The translations under genes and the position numbers were made by a program. Positions 4,320 through 61,815 of a DNA stretch of 64,000 bases are shown piece after piece. Within the stretch, counting starts at the first letter, position 1, and every line of letters begins with the position of its first letter. A model generated the notes under the pieces. That model was not told the origin of the DNA. It did no database searches and saw nothing but the letters and a program-made list of their open reading frames with translations. The stretch is from Escherichia coli (lineage in GTDB: Bacteria; Pseudomonadota; Gammaproteobacteria; Enterobacterales; Enterobacteriaceae): the NCBI RefSeq assembly GCF_011045215.1, contig NZ_CP049201.1; one strand, given 5' to 3'.

Positions 4320-5909
4320 TCAGCTCAACGCCAGTAGCTGACGCGTATACTCCTGCTGCGGTGTGGCAAACACGCGCGCGCACGGTCCTTGTTCCACTAC
4401 TTCCCCTTGTCGCAGTACGATAACCTGATGACATAACGCGCGGACAACGTGCAAATCGTGGCTGATAAACAAATAGGCCAGTTGATGCTTTTGTTGCAAT
4501 GATTTCAATAGCGTCAATATTTGCGCCTGTACCGTTTTGTCGAGTGATGATGTCGGTTCATCAAGTATGATCAGCGAGGGCTTAAGAATTAATGCCCTGG
4601 CAATCGCAATACGTTGTCGCTGACCACCAGAGAACTCCGCCGGATAACGGTGGCGTGTTTCAGGATCTAATCCCACTTCATGCATCACGGCTATCACTTG
4701 TTGTTCGCGTTGTGCGGCAGAAAGCGTCGGCTGGTGAACCCGTAAGCCTTCCTCAATAATCTGCAAAACGTTGAGTCGTGGGTTGAGCGAGGAGTTTGGA
4801 TCCTGAAATACCACCTGAATGCGATGACGAATAGGTAACAGCTGGCGGCGATTTAAATTTTGCAGTGGCTGACCGTCAAAGATGATGCTGCCCTGAGAAT
4901 TAATCAGTCGCAGCAGCGCCAGTCCCGTCGTGCTTTTCCCGGAACCGGACTCGCCCACTAAACCCAGTGTTTCACCCGCTCGTAGCGTAAAACTGATGTT
5001 TTTCACCACCACATTATGATCCACAATGCGTTTCAAAATCCCTTTGCGAATGGGGAAGGCAACCTGAAGCTGTTCAACATCCAGCAACGTTGAGGCAGGT
5101 TCTGGCAACGGCACTGGATCGCCTGACGGTTCACTGTTGAGTAGCTTTTGTGTGTAAGGATGAGTGGGTGAGGCAAATAGCGTAGCGGCGTAATTTTGCT
5201 CGACACAGCGACCGTTTTGCATTACCGCCACGCGGTGGGCCAGTTTTCTGACAATGCTGAGGTTATGAGTAATAAACAGCATGCCCATATTCAACTCGCC
5301 TTGCAGTTCGCGCAACAGCTGTAAAATCTGCGCCTGGACAGAGACGTCCAGTGCGGTGGTCGGTTCATCGGCAATTAATAATTCCGGTCGCGTTAACAGC
5401 GCCATCGCAATCATCACCCGCTGGCGTTCGCCGCCGGAGAGCTGATGCGGATAATCTGTCAGCCGTTTTGCCGCCTGGCGGATACCAACGCGATCAAGGC
5501 AGTTAAGAATTTCGCCACGAGCCGCTTCCCGACGCATCCCGCGGTGGAGTGAAAGCACTTCATAAAGCTGTTTTTCCAGGGTATGCAATGGATTTAACGA
5601 CACCATCGGCTCTTGAAAAATCATGGCGATCTTATTACCGCGTACACCGCGCAACGTTTGGTCGCTGGCATGAAGCAGCGATTCGCCATGAAAACGAATA
5701 TCGCCGGAGAGATATTCAACCGGCGGGGAAGGGAGCAGGCGTAAAATTGACAGCGCGGTAACGCTTTTGCCTGAACCTGACTCACCCACCAGCGCCAGCG
5801 TTTCGCCAGCCTCAATCTGTAGTGAAACATCATTGACTACTGTACGTACGGTTTGCTGATGGCGAAAACCCACCGACAAATCTTCAATCGCTAACAGAGT
5901 TTGCGTCAT
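4320..5909 (-). CDS. yejF: ABC transporter ATP-binding protein YejF (two fused ATPase domains) of the YejABEF peptide/microcin C importer
   Basis: ORF 4320..5957; start assigned to the internal ATG at 5909 (MTQTLLAIEDLSVGF...), giving 529 aa. Two Walker A motifs (GESGSGKS twice) and two ABC signature motifs (LSGGERQR, FSGGQRQR). Confidence 0.9.
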   Translation of the reverse strand: MTQTLLAIEDLSVGFRHQQTVRTVVNDVSLQIEAGETLALVGESGSGKSVTALSILRLLPSPPVEYLSGDIRFHGESLLHASDQTLRGVRGNKIAMIFQEPMVSLNPLHTLEKQLYEVLSLHRGMRREAARGEILNCLDRVGIRQAAKRLTDYPHQLSGGERQRVMIAMALLTRPELLIADEPTTALDVSVQAQILQLLRELQGELNMGMLFITHNLSIVRKLAHRVAVMQNGRCVEQNYAATLFASPTHPYTQKLLNSEPSGDPVPLPEPASTLLDVEQLQVAFPIRKGILKRIVDHNVVVKNISFTLRAGETLGLVGESGSGKSTTGLALLRLINSQGSIIFDGQPLQNLNRRQLLPIRHRIQVVFQDPNSSLNPRLNVLQIIEEGLRVHQPTLSAAQREQQVIAVMHEVGLDPETRHRYPAEFSGGQRQRIAIARALILKPSLIILDEPTSSLDKTVQAQILTLLKSLQQKHQLAYLFISHDLHVVRALCHQVIVLRQGEVVEQGPCARVFATPQQEYTRQLLALS

Positions 5910-44454: not shown

Positions 44455-44875
44455 GTTTTGTAGGCCGGATAAGGCGTTCACGCCGCATCCGGCGACAGGA
44501 GCCAAATGCCGGATGCAACGCTGGCGCGTTTTATCCGGCCTACAATGAGCTCAACATACTGATTTGTATGGTTTTGTAGGCCGGATAAGGCGTTCACGCC
44601 GCATCCGGCGACAGGAGCCAAATGCCGGATGCAACGCTGGCGCGTTTTATCCGGCCTACAATGAGCTCAACATACTGATTTGTATGGTTTTGTAGGCCGG
44701 ATAAGGCGTTCAAGCCGCATCCGGCGACAGGAGCCAAATGCCGGATGCAACGCTGGCGCGTTTTATCCGGCCTACAATGAGCTCAACATACTGATTTGTA
44801 TGGTTTTGTAGGCCGGATAAGGCGTTCAAGCCGCATCCGGCGACAGGAACCAAATGCCGGATGCGTCTCTGGTTT
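44455..44875. repeat. Tandem BIME/REP array: ~3.6 copies of a 116-bp unit, each holding two inverted REP palindromes
   Basis: The motif gtaggccggataaggcgttca[c/a]gccgcatccggcg recurs at 44460, 44576, 44692 and 44808 (period exactly 116 bp), each followed by the inverted gccggatgcaacgctggcgcgttttatccggcctac. The last unit is cut off at the preA stop codon. Confidence 0.9.
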
Positions 44876-47535: not shown

Positions 47536-49531
<1,996 letters not shown>

Positions 49532-50989: not shown

Positions 50990-51940
50990 ATGCGTGTGTT
51001 ACTGGCACCGATGGAGGGTGTGCTTGATTCTCTGGTGCGTGAATTGCTGACCGAAGTTAACGACTACGATCTGTGCATCACCGAGTTCGTCCGCGTGGTG
51101 GATCAACTGCTGCCGGTAAAAGTCTTTCATCGCATTTGCCCTGAGTTACAAAACGCCAGCCGGACACCATCCGGTACGCTGGTGCGCGTTCAGTTGTTAG
51201 GTCAGTTCCCACAATGGCTGGCAGAGAACGCCGCCCGTGCGGTGGAGTTAGGTTCCTGGGGCGTGGGTCTCAATTGCGGCTGCCCGTCGAAAACGGTCAA
51301 CGGTAGCGGTGGTGGGGCGACGTTACTCAAAGATCCTGAACTCATCTACCAGGGGGCAAAAGCGATGCGTGAAGCTGTACCGGCGCATTTGCCCGTCAGC
51401 GTGAAAGTGCGTCTGGGCTGGGACAGCGGTGAGAAGAAATTTGAAATCGCCGATGCGGTTCAACAGGCTGGCGCTACGGAGCTGGTGGTGCATGGGCGGA
51501 CAAAAGAGCAGGGTTACCGCGCGGAGCATATTGACTGGCAGGCGATTGGCGAGATTCGCCAGCAGCTGAATATTCCGGTGATTGCCAACGGTGAAATCTG
51601 GGACTGGCAGAGTGCGCAACAATGCATGGCGATCAGCGGCTGCGACGCAGTGATGATTGGTCGCGGGGCGCTCAATATTCCCAACCTGAGCCGGGTAGTA
51701 AAATATAACGAACCGCGAATGCCGTGGCCGGAGGTGGTTGCTTTGCTGCAAAAATATACCCGTCTGGAAAAGCAGGGCGATACCGGGTTATATCACGTAG
51801 CGCGGATTAAACAGTGGTTGAGTTATTTGCGTAAAGAATACGATGAAGCAACGGAATTATTTCAGCATGTTCGGGTGTTGAATAATTCCCCTGATATTGC
51901 AAGGGCTATTCAGGCAATTGATATCGATAAGCTGCGATAA
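50990..51940 (+). CDS. dusC: tRNA-dihydrouridine(16) synthase DusC (YohI)
   Basis: ORF 50924..51940; start at [13 protein letters not shown]...; Dus-family TIM barrel with catalytic Cys region (GLNCGCP). Confidence 0.9.
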
Positions 51941-52327
51941 TAGTGGAATCGCAGTTTATCAGAGACAATGAATCGCTTATTCAGCTTCATCATCTTGTTG
52001 CGCTCCTTTCATGAGCTAAGCCACATATTGCCACTGGCGCAAGGAGCGCGCAGGGGGAGGACAATCGCCTCCTCCCCCTGCACCCCCGGGCTCTGGCGAA
52101 CAAAATCGCCGCTGCGCGGTACCTTCAGCTTATCCCCTTCGGCTACCGGGTCGGGCGCGAGGAAACGTCCTTGTAAGACGCGCCCTCAGCCCACATCCAT
52201 GTGGGCTGCCCCGGCCTTCGGGGAACGCTTCAGCAATTTTGACGCCACCAACACCGGAGCTGTTTGCAAATCAAGTACACAAAATATCTAGTTCCTGACC
52301 TGACAACTTATATGTCATATCTGATTT

Positions 52328-52411
52328 TTAAAATATCATCTTAAATACGCCAGTCACCACCAGTAGCCCAATCAGGAAAATAATCAATACAGCCCAGAGT
52401 ATAATTTTCAT
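52328..52411 (-). CDS. yohP: Small membrane protein YohP (27 aa)
   Basis: Found by manual reverse-complement reading: ATG at 52411, MKIILWAVLIIFLIGLLVVTGVFKMIF, stop TAA at 52330-52328. Below the ORF-track length cutoff. Confidence 0.7.
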   Translation of the reverse strand: MKIILWAVLIIFLIGLLVVTGVFKMIF

Positions 52412-52634
52412 TGGCGTTCCTTTATTTGTGAGTGCTGAATAAGTATAGGAAAAAACGAAGCCCTTTGCCGTTATCCATAAACGATTAAGATAAATCGGAA
52501 GATATCATTCGCTTAGTGTATATTTTTCTGGATATGTCGTTTTATTGCTACTGATGTATTGCCACGCGAAACTAAAAAATATATCGCAACACACGGTAAT
52601 CTCCGCGCACCTTTTCTTACCTGATTATTCCCCC

Positions 52635-54071
52635 ATGAATCGTGATTCCTTTTATCCAGCCATCGCCTGTTTTCCGCTGTTACTGATGCTGACCGGGTGT
52701 GCGCCTATGCATGAAACCCGCCAGGCGTTAAGCCAGCAAACGCCCGCTGCACAAGTTGATACCGCATTACCCACGGCGCTGAAAAATGGTTGGCCAGACA
52801 GCCAATGGTGGCTGGAGTATCACGATAATCAGCTCACTTCCTTAATTAACAATGCACTACAGAACGCACCGGATATGAAGGTGGCTGAACAGCGCATTCA
52901 GCTAGCTGAAGCCCAGGCGAAGGCAGTTGCTACTCAGGATGGTCCGCAGATCGACTTTTCTGCGGATATGGAGCGGCAAAAAATGTCGGCAGAAGGGCTA
53001 ATGGGGCCGTTTGCTCTGAACGATCCGGCCGCAGGTACGACCGGTCCGTGGTACACCAACGGAACTTTTGGCTTAACGGCGGGCTGGCATCTCGATATCT
53101 GGGGAAAGAATCGGGCGGAGGTTACTGCCCGCCTGGGTACGGTTAAAGCACGGGCGGCGGAACGCGAGCAAACCCGCCAATTGCTGGCTGGCAGCGTAGC
53201 CCGCCTGTACTGGGAGTGGCAAACCCAGGCGGCGTTAAACACGGTCTTGCGGCAAATCGAAAAAGAGCAGAACACCATTATCGCGACCGATCGCCAGCTA
53301 TATCAGAACGGGATTACTTCTTCAGTTGAAGGTGTGGAAACCGATATTAATGCCAGCAAAACCCGGCAGCAGCTCAACGATGTCGCGGGGAAAATGAAAA
53401 TTATTGAGGCACGGTTAAGCGCACTTACAAATCACCAGACAAAGTCATTGAAGCTTAAACCGGTCGCGTTGCCGAAAGTGGCAAGCCAGCTTCCTGATGA
53501 ACTGGGGTACTCCTTACTGGCCCGGCGGGCAGATTTGCAGGCGGCGCACTGGTACGTTGAGTCATCGCTAAGCACCATTGATGCGGCAAAAGCGGCATTT
53601 TATCCTGACATCAACCTGATGGCCTTTCTGCAACAGGATGCGTTGCACTTAAGCGATCTGTTCCGTCATTCCGCGCAGCAAATGGGTGTTACGGCAGGCC
53701 TGACGCTACCCATTTTCGATAGTGGTCGTCTTAACGCCAATCTCGATATCGCAAAAGCCGAAAGCAACTTGTCTATCGCCAGCTACAACAAAGCGGTGGT
53801 TGAAGCGGTAAATGACGTGGCGCGGGCGGCCAGCCAGGTTCAGACACTGGCGGAGAAAAACCAGCATCAGGCGCAAATTGAGCACGATGCCTTGCGTGTG
53901 GTAGGTCTTGCGCAGGCGCGCTTTAACGCGGGCATCATTGCTGGTTCCCGCGTCAGCGAAGCCAGAATCCCCGCGCTGCGTGAGCGGGCCAATGGCCTGT
54001 TATTGCAAGGGCAGTGGCTGGATGCCTCCATTCAACTCACTGGTGCGTTGGGCGGGGGTTACAAACGCTGA
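52635..54071 (+). CDS. mdtQ: Outer membrane efflux lipoprotein MdtQ (TolC/NodT OMF family), apparently intact
   Basis: ORF 52545..54071; likely start at ATG 52635 (MNRDSFYPAIACFPLLLMLTGC, lipobox LTGC), giving 478 aa; OMF coiled-coil/beta-barrel repeat architecture. Confidence 0.8.
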   Translation: MNRDSFYPAIACFPLLLMLTGCAPMHETRQALSQQTPAAQVDTALPTALKNGWPDSQWWLEYHDNQLTSLINNALQNAPDMKVAEQRIQLAEAQAKAVATQDGPQIDFSADMERQKMSAEGLMGPFALNDPAAGTTGPWYTNGTFGLTAGWHLDIWGKNRAEVTARLGTVKARAAEREQTRQLLAGSVARLYWEWQTQAALNTVLRQIEKEQNTIIATDRQLYQNGITSSVEGVETDINASKTRQQLNDVAGKMKIIEARLSALTNHQTKSLKLKPVALPKVASQLPDELGYSLLARRADLQAAHWYVESSLSTIDAAKAAFYPDINLMAFLQQDALHLSDLFRHSAQQMGVTAGLTLPIFDSGRLNANLDIAKAESNLSIASYNKAVVEAVNDVARAASQVQTLAEKNQHQAQIEHDALRVVGLAQARFNAGIIAGSRVSEARIPALRERANGLLLQGQWLDASIQLTGALGGGYKR

Positions 54072-56350: not shown

Positions 56351-56523
56351 AAAGTTCTTTGACGTTGCATTGCTGGCGTAAATGTCAGCAATGCAGCATT
56401 TCCTCACGATTCTCCTTTGACGATCGCACTTTTTGCTCGTTATGATGGCGTCGCTAGCCTCAGTAAATCCTTACTCCGGCGGTGCGCAACCCGTGCGCGT
56501 GAACCACTATCTGAATGCTCATC

Positions 56524-61777: not shown

Positions 61778-61815
61778 GTAGGCCGGATAAGGCGCTCGCG
61801 CCGCATCCGGCAGGA
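61778..61815. repeat. REP element between bglX and osmF
   Basis: gtaggccggataaggcgctcgcgccgcatccggcagg: canonical REP palindrome. Confidence 0.7.

Follow-up and report, generated by a model that had tools for sequence, protein, structure and literature searches.

The GC-rich block in the spacer between dusC and yohP of the analysed Escherichia coli DNA (a stretch of 64 kb, hereafter called the window) is a copy of the already described TRIP1c or RRS-dusC repeat (RRS, replication risk sequence) and represents no new kind of element. Its conserved core very probably acts as a DNA-level structure former which causes gaps, these presumably being weaker or absent in the orientation adopted in the window. 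The preliminary description of this DNA had offered a different intergenic repeat family as one of several readings, and the assignment to TRIP1 (Rudd 1999; PMC10888264) or RRS (PMC10287960, PMC11194060) proves that reading right; the identification with a known repeat family at the same time removes the claim of novelty. The identity of the family, its locus, the variant G-quadruplex (G4) motif, the fold with its compensatory conservation and the orientation were computed here, and for the polymerase block, the gap formation and the topology effects we rely on published K-12 experiments.

The convergent genes dusC and yohP, the latter followed by mdtQ, enclose a spacer of 387 bp. Its GC content amounts to 0.62–0.67 over positions 52000–52250 and to 0.32–0.40 in the spacer on either side, in agreement with the original view of a GC-rich block inside an AT-rich spacer. 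The extent first ascribed to the block (52040–52230) is real but partial, as the core defined by the alignment of copies and the full homologous unit are both longer (Table 1). The sequences flanking the element are 98–99% identical to K-12 b2140, b4679 and b2139, and colinearity with K-12 persists up to position 51933 on the dusC side and resumes at 52326 on the yohP side. The full unit matches the K-12 aqpZ-lysO copy in blastn with 90.5% identity over 304 nt, which rises to 92% over the 264-nt core, and the core shows a mean column identity of 92% in an alignment of 18 Escherichia copies.

Table 1. Positions of the repeat, its predicted structural elements and neighbouring features in the window.
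Feature	Position	Strand	Remarks
dusC	50993..51940	+	flanking gene, co-directional with replication; 98% identity to K-12 b2140; start (~50993) placed from length and K-12 alignment
107-aa ORF	51968..52291	+	not a gene; from ORF listing
Full repeat unit	51986..52289	.	extent of homology to the K-12 aqpZ-lysO copy (TRIP1a / RRS-lysO)
Conserved 266-bp core, TRIP1c / RRS-dusC	51997..52262	.	inverted relative to K-12; set by copy alignment
Helix 1	52000..52049	.	GCGCTCCTT (52000-52008) pairs with AAGGAGCGC (52041-52049); inverted-repeat search
12-bp hairpin	52050..52081	.	perfect stem, 8-nt loop; first palindrome of the preliminary description
Predicted G4 motif GGGGGTGCAGGGGGAGGAGG	52069..52088	-	motif regular expression; variant of the published RRS G4 GGGGGTGCAGGGGGCGGCGG
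Long-range stem, 5' arm	52094..52116	.	closes the multi-branch domain; pairs with 52226-52247; inverted-repeat search
TCCCC	52133..52137	.	long-range pairing with GGGGA at 52220-52224; competes with palindrome 3
Hairpin B	52153..52185	.	GGGCGCG...CGCGCCC, inner AGGA/TCCT stem; minus-strand loop ACAAGGACGU
Hairpin A	52187..52208	.	perfect 10-bp palindrome, 2-nt centre; second palindrome of the preliminary description
Palindrome 3, CCCCGGCCTTCGGGG (CCCCG GCCTT CGGGG)	52209..52223	.	perfect only in the allele group of the window
Long-range stem, 3' arm	52226..52247	.	partner of 52094..52116
yohP	52328..52411	-	small membrane protein gene, convergent with dusC; 100% identity to K-12 b4679
REP copies in the window	44460-44841, 48606, 61778		consensus match

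TRIP1 was named by Rudd in 1999 and surveyed in 6725 genomes by Li et al. in 2024, TRIP1c denoting the copy between yohI (dusC) and yohG (mdtQ) (PMC10888264). The window copy occupies exactly this dusC (yohI) - yohP/mdtQ (yohG) spacer, has the high GC content (62–65%) and the extensive secondary-structure potential that characterise the TRIP1/RRS elements, and its gene neighbours and coordinates agree with those published for TRIP1c and RRS-dusC. With the K-12 dusC-yohP copy, to which it is 89% identical over 272 nt, it shares the locus, the length class of 266–273 bp, the GC content, the hairpins and long-range helices and the position of the G4 motif. Its identity to the K-12 lysO copy (92%) and to the Escherichia sp. 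E1V33 dusC copy (98%) exceeds that to the K-12 TRIP1c. TRIP1a or RRS-lysO has in common with the window copy ca. 10–25 nt beyond the core on each side, but resides at another locus 1.3 Mb away on the other replichore; the window includes neither lysO nor dif.

A BLASTN search for dispersed copies, as proposed in the preliminary description, was carried out with positions 52030–52240; megablast returned 15128 places in 5425 of the 5426 complete E. coli genomes, with a median of three and a maximum of eight places per genome. Within the 64-kb window no other copy was found. K-12 carries two full-length copies, at dusC-yohP and aqpZ-lysO, and a deleted one downstream of putP, and sharp-edged copies are present at at least five Escherichia loci (dusC, lysO, putP, alx and copA). 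Homologues of core positions 39–261 (222–223 nt, 81–84% identity) occur in Klebsiella at loci unrelated to those of E. coli, 13 places being counted in one K. pneumoniae chromosome, and Citrobacter carries homologues of the same core segment. The Klebsiella and Citrobacter sequences derive from a plasmid collection, in which the records inspected are largely chromosome pieces filed as plasmids. A contig scan with the 18-mer GGCGAACAAAATCGCCGC yielded only Escherichia species, one contaminant contig and ca. 80 chance matches; it is too strict for Klebsiella, which differs within the 18-mer, and therefore uninformative on other genera.

The block is conspicuous for its hairpins. Perfect hairpins with a stem of ≥9 bp and a loop of 2–12 nt number 14 in the 64-kb window, compared with 3.2 ± 1.7 in first-order Markov simulations, and two of the 14 fall within the 190-bp block (P(≥2) ~3e-4 in composition-matched simulations). 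On both strands and with both DNA and RNA parameters, the fold of the 266-nt core reaches z = -5.5 to -5.9 relative to dinucleotide shuffles, and none of 200 shuffles folds as well. RNAalifold applied to the 18 Escherichia copies gives 75 consensus pairs with 98.7% of the cells paired. The covariation analysis advocated in the preliminary description turned out positive, as seven pairs are changed on both sides across Escherichia and none in any of six slid controls. We conclude that the fold of the element is under selection, because of these seven compensated pairs across Escherichia and the further ones that the Klebsiella homologues add to them.

The compensated pairs are distributed over most parts of the structure. 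Helix 1 is 98.5% paired in the alignment and contains one of them. In the 12-bp hairpin, alignment pairs 62–79 and 65–74 are CG in 14–15 copies and AU in three, with both sides changed; the window belongs to the minority, with A-T at the two positions where K-12 has C-G. The long-range stem, corresponding to alignment helix 5 with 18 pairs, is 99.1% paired, and in Klebsiella the replacement of a G-C pair by C-G (GGCG/CGCC to GGCC/GGCC) leaves its pairing intact. Pair 143–227, which is UA in 13 copies and CG in five with both sides changed, corresponds to 52137–52220 in the window and supports the long-range helix 52133–52137 / 52220–52224. Hairpin B is equivalent to alignment helices 10–11 and includes the compensated pair 166–186; its GGA is retained in all Escherichia and Klebsiella copies. 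In hairpin A, pairs 198–211 and 200–209 are compensated in the alx and putP types and an A-T to G-C change is found in Klebsiella, and the central CATCCATG is invariant in every Escherichia or Klebsiella copy that retains the region. Of the three palindromes initially described, the second is confirmed as a perfect palindrome with a 10-bp stem, and the first is real but its stem is longer than was claimed. The third is present one base to the left of the claimed position and is perfect only in the window's allele, most other copies having CAGGG at this site. The conservation of the CATCCATG loop is an observation for which a purely structural role does not account.

The element carries a single predicted G4 motif, located on the minus strand, and none on its plus strand. 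The 25-mer 52063–52087, which overlaps GGGGGTGCAGGGGGAGGAGG, has the top |G4Hunter| value of the 64-kb window (-1.92). Compared with K-12, the motif reads AGGAGG instead of CGGCGG, and each of the two C-to-A changes has a G-to-T counterpart in the opposite arm of the 12-bp hairpin. The G-run overlaps one arm of this hairpin, which competes with the predicted G4. Two of the six Klebsiella copies have breaks in their G5 runs: in the K. aerogenes copy at the sitD locus the hairpin is kept by a compensating change, and in the K. variicola copy one side only is changed. These interrupted runs hint that the fold rather than the G4 may be the conserved feature.

Relative to K-12, both flanks of the window align plus/minus (98–99%) and the element aligns plus/plus (89%); the element thus sits in reverse orientation between flanks that remain colinear. 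The GC skew of the window is positive in seven of eight bins, from which it follows that the replication fork runs in the plus direction and that the plus strand serves as lagging-strand template. In the window copy the G4 strand would thus be the leading-strand template and the C-rich plus strand the lagging-strand template. The same logic applied to K-12 reproduces the published statement that the G4 lies on the lagging-strand template (PMC11194060), an arrangement from which the window copy departs, being inverted with respect to both flanking genes. [quoted passage not shown]

The polymorphism in orientation as such is not new, as both directions were already reported at dusC and lysO, with counts of 2952/2789 for TRIP1c and 3448/1255 for TRIP1a; at the dusC locus both are classed as TRIP1c (PMC10888264). 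Junction-specific searches in the 5426 complete E. coli genomes, which deliver marginal counts per locus, assigned 2001 genomes to the window type and 3411 to the K-12 type at dusC, and 1236 to the inverted and 4027 to the K-12 type at lysO, corresponding to reversed shares of 37% and 23%, respectively. The O157:H7 strain PV15-279 has both copies reversed, namely a dusC copy 99.5% identical to that of the window and a second one at aqpZ-lysO in inverted relative orientation. A search for flanking inverted repeats that could mediate inversion lends no support to a simple flip in place, and the filler on either side of the element also differs from one orientation allele to the other. The difference from the K-12 TRIP1c comprises the whole intergenic cassette including the last dusC codons (IDIDKLR* in the window and IDIEKL* in K-12), and judged from their sequences each orientation allele is a cassette of its own. 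The sequence types group according to locus and orientation and are common to several Escherichia species. In Escherichia sp. E1V33 the dusC copy is 98% identical to that of the window and dusC itself only 93%.

The functional data available refer to K-12. [quoted passage not shown] The subsequent report (PMC11194060) states that Pol I, II and IV are blocked by the RRS G4 motif GGGGGTGCAGGGGGCGGCGG, which is present on one strand, that gaps arise when the lagging-strand template carries the G4, that a clean loss of both RRS copies is impossible in K-12, that deletion or inversion of RRS alters genome-wide supercoiling, and that an engineered inverted RRS produces no RecA or SSB peak in vivo. 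In vitro, according to a 2026 preprint, gaps form with ~66% frequency and a size of ~325 nt if the G4 is on the leading-strand template, compared with 100% and ~650–700 nt in the comparison orientation. The discoverers proposed the gaps to be topological relief points flanking the Ter domain. As a related system, the discussion of Pham et al. 2024 (PMC11194060) names the pilE G4 of Neisseria gonorrhoeae, likewise a bacterial G4 with a replication- or strand-dependent single-strand interruption; it differs in its unrelated sequence and in serving pilin antigenic variation.

The mechanism published for K-12 is the most probable one and leads to the following scenario. The family consists of a few GC-rich intergenic elements of ~270 bp in Escherichia, with relatives in Klebsiella and Citrobacter, and would act on the DNA level. 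Upon unwinding of the duplex at the replication fork each strand would fold into a stable structure of several hairpins, a G-quadruplex being a further option for the G-rich strand. The polymerase would thereby be blocked, and a single-stranded gap occupied by SSB and RecA would remain on the lagging strand after replication. Because of its orientation, the window copy is expected to exert a weak gap effect or none, such that its gaps would presumably be rarer and smaller than those of the K-12 copy or undetectable in vivo. [quoted passage not shown]

Other explanations for the block have to be weighed against this scenario. A small protein encoded by the ORF across the element, which is uninterrupted over the whole element in the window strain, is effectively refuted, as its frame is not conserved. 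Stops in this frame occur in 15 of the 18 homologous copies, including the 98% identical one of E1V33, indels of 1–2 nt between copies shift the frame, stop-free runs of 53–89 aa on both strands of the copies are to be expected for DNA of 65% GC, and PGAP/RefSeq annotates no CDS under the element among the matches listed. The ORF is hence a by-product of GC-rich DNA, as had been surmised. It is rather unlikely that the element is a non-autonomous mobile relic of MITE-like or RAYT type, distributed by independent insertions, devoid of a host function and only incidentally affecting replication. Such a relic would conform with sharply bounded copies at at least five Escherichia loci, with the two orientations at one locus accompanied by different side filler, which looks like independent insertion or cassette replacement, with the 13 places of the K. 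pneumoniae chromosome at loci unlike those of E. coli, and with internally deleted derivatives such as TRIP1b and a plasmid copy. Dispersal, both orientations and deletion derivatives are indeed what a MITE would display. However, the unit ends are not mutual inverted repeats, and no target-site duplication is seen where the element joins its surroundings, at either locus and in each of the two orientations. In addition, 50,697 phage records contain no match, all 34 plasmid-collection matches are typed as non-mobilizable, and the seven inspected carry chromosomal genes. Locus- and orientation-specific types across Escherichia species speak for old kept or exchanged alleles and not for recent hopping; the core is at least as conserved between species as the flanking genes (92% versus 87–97% for dusC, mdtQ, aqpZ and lysO); pairing is preserved by compensatory changes; and K-12 cannot cleanly lose both copies (PMC11194060). 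The early suggestion of a relic of an ancient insertion is thus acceptable as origin, since it fits the multi-locus spread in two orientations, but is at odds with the strong selection, purifying as well as compensatory, to which the fold is subject. That the block is no REP element was stated correctly from the beginning: the REP consensus (GCCGGATGCGGCG...CCGGCCTAC) has no match in 51900–52350 and six elsewhere in the window. REP/BIME sequences are likewise GC-rich, intergenic and palindromic repeats shortly downstream of genes, but TRIP1 is about seven times longer, has a multi-branch fold and exists in few copies instead of hundreds.

The fold might also be exerted on the level of RNA, a structured non-coding RNA having been among the readings of the preliminary description, in that the G-rich strand, transcribed by read-through from yohP (from dusC in K-12), forms a structured RNA with GGA-loop hairpins which binds CsrA or another protein, a possibility that we regard as quite improbable. 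In its favour, the Rfam family RF01731 (TwoAYGGAY), for which CsrA binding has itself been suggested, can be aligned over its full length to the G-rich strand of seven Escherichia copies (25.4 bits in the window, 26–37 in the six others, the highest being 36.9), the best match being that of E. albertii with E = 0.0096 in 17 kb. Both have a G-strand closing stem around two neighbouring hairpins, which carry ..AUGGAU.. and ..GGA(U/C)G.. in their loops and are connected by an AG linker. The CsrA SELEX consensus is RUACARGGAUGU, and the G-strand loops ACAUGGAUGU and ACA(A/G)GGA(C/U)GU are near to it. The two GGA loops of the G strand, ca. 28 nt apart, are kept in all copies retaining the region, and CATCCATG is invariant in Escherichia and Klebsiella copies with this hairpin while the adjoining stem co-varies. 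The RNA fold is better on the minus strand (-144.7 versus -124.9 kcal/mol), and between convergent genes the G strand is part of the read-through of one gene whichever the orientation. Yet the RF01731 scores, at 25–37 bits throughout the Escherichia copies, all remain under the gathering score of 43 and the six Klebsiella copies give no match at E ≤ 1. The signal became no stronger across nine more Escherichia and six Klebsiella loci, and the element is therefore not assigned to TwoAYGGAY. The Rfam comparison recommended in the preliminary description accordingly returned no family at gathering threshold for the block, either in a permissive scan of 51000–53500 or in the gathering scan of the whole window. 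Moreover, no promoter-like or terminator-like signal bounds a transcript; single-sided changes of G-U type and of A-C type are equal on the two strands (~10 cells each), so that neither strand is favoured; dusC and ybjE (lysO) appear in the K-12 CsrA CLIP tables as neither bound nor regulated; and at the K-12 lysO locus the G strand runs antisense to the genes on both sides. It is very improbable that the hairpins serve as a REP/BIME-like RNA 3' end which stops read-through or shields the dusC and yohP mRNAs from 3' exonucleases. No intrinsic terminator is predicted between dusC and yohP, the element starts 38–96 bp downstream of a stop codon at all five E. coli loci, and symmetric hairpins would provide stable stems in both transcripts in either orientation. 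At the K-12 lysO locus, however, the element comes after the aqpZ terminator hairpin and is hence not needed there, the hairpins of the element are without U-tracts, and a function at the 3' end accounts neither for the conserved long-range helices nor for the G-run. The scan for promoters and terminators is uninformative, with a single weak promoter-like site close to yohP and no terminator; no tRNA or tmRNA is present in the window. A yohP read-through transcript would contain the G-rich strand of the element.

A further alternative concerns the feature on which selection acts. It is possible, though unlikely, that the selected feature is the multi-hairpin fold with its invariant CATCCATG and GGA loops, acting independently of orientation, and not a lagging-strand G4. 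In line with this, both orientations are kept at both Ter-flanking loci in natural Escherichia populations, compensatory changes extend from Escherichia to Klebsiella, and one Klebsiella copy undergoes such a change despite its broken G-run. If so, a protein might recognise the element as a DNA hairpin or cruciform, or the element might be a G-strand RNA akin to TwoAYGGAY or CsrA-binding RNAs, and the gap phenotype of K-12 would be one manifestation only. The abundance of reversed copies (2001 of 5426 genomes at dusC, 1236 at lysO, and both in O157:H7) is hard to reconcile with the lagging-strand G4 model.

For the favoured gap-forming function, the orientation of the window copy is of particular relevance. 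RRS is a chromosomal sequence, characterised only recently, by which post-replication gaps are programmed and supercoiling across the genome is affected; the window adds a natural case of the reverse orientation, whose engineered version is linked to undetectable gaps and altered topology. At dusC, this orientation is the normal state in more than one third of the complete E. coli genomes, and in O157:H7 it applies to both copies. The two literatures have so far not been joined: the TRIP1 survey, in the portions accessible, gives directions without the context of replication (PMC10888264), and the RRS papers, to the extent accessible, describe an element whose sequence and position are highly conserved, and the inversions they discuss are engineered ones only (PMC10287960, PMC11194060). 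The O157:H7 genomes are the natural counterpart of the double-inverted RRS construct.

The difference between the two orientation haplotypes at dusC extends beyond the element itself (TRIP1c or RRS-dusC, the GC-rich repeat inverted relative to K-12): the entire dusC-yohP intergenic cassette is divergent between the window type (51934-52325) and the K-12 type (L001, the K-12 dusC-yohP region, 5069-5442). The C-terminal codons of dusC lie within this difference and read IDIDKLR* in the window and IDIEKL* in K-12. All strong hairpins between dusC and yohP (window 51940-52328) are part of the repeat, and no intrinsic-terminator-like site for the convergent genes was predicted in this interval.

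Both haplotypes are also found in other Escherichia species, as recorded for Escherichia sp. E1V33, E. whittamii (L058) and Escherichia sp. MOD1-EC7003 (L098). The window element shares 98% identity with its counterpart in E1V33 (L076 6083-6348), compared with 93% for dusC of the same pair. The copy in MOD1-EC7003 is internally deleted; at the positions that align, it and the K-12-type element are 100% identical. The cross-species occurrence, together with the identity values of element and dusC, points either to an old polymorphism maintained in several Escherichia species or to cassette exchange between species.

In O157:H7 genomes (L102; PV15-279) both Ter-flanking copies, those at dusC and lysO, carry the G4 on the leading-strand template. 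This naturally occurring arrangement corresponds to that of the K-12 strain in which both copies were inverted by engineering and which reportedly has altered supercoiling (PMC11194060).

Positions of repeat copies, hairpins and RNA motifs
Feature	Sequence	Position	Strand	Remark
Ter-flanking copies, O157:H7 PV15-279	NZ_AP018488.1	about 1,023,690 and about 3,012,908
13-bp hairpin	window	51926-51960		window haplotype only
Four-REP array	window	44460-44841		116-bp period; BIME cluster
naRNA4 (CssrE) Rfam matches, n=3	window	overlapping REP array, 44460-44841		79-86 bits
Single REP units	window	48606-48639 and 61778-61811
Peptidase-S11 RNA motif (RF03039)	window	56439-56519	+	72.8 bits vs gathering score 34.8; presumably upstream of pbpG

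An exact 18-mer scan of species-representative genomes placed the element in Escherichia only. Homologues of ca. 222 bp with 81-84% identity are nevertheless present in Klebsiella pneumoniae, K. aerogenes and K. variicola (L105-L110) and were missed by the scan because their sequence differs inside the 18-mer. They occupy loci unrelated to those in E. coli (pcaC, phoC, proY-ybhB, sitD and others), and one K. pneumoniae chromosome (CP125156.1, filed as a plasmid) contains the repeat in 13 places.

A further full-length TRIP1 copy resides on a 583-bp contig of coverage 0.7 labelled Bacillus sp. EB106-08-02-XG196 (L064 160-425), where it adjoins 117 nt that match E. coli putP with 100% identity. 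The contig is almost certainly an E. coli contamination of the Bacillus assembly; it shows that some strains have an undeleted full-length TRIP1 at the putP locus. The chromosomal segment macA-ybjX-ybjD-aqpZ-lysO-hcp-hcr is found on the 88-kb E. coli plasmid pMTY11352_3 (NZ_CP134387.1, L003), where it includes a copy of TRIP1a, the aqpZ-lysO family member, with a 94-nt internal deletion (L003 3898-4311).
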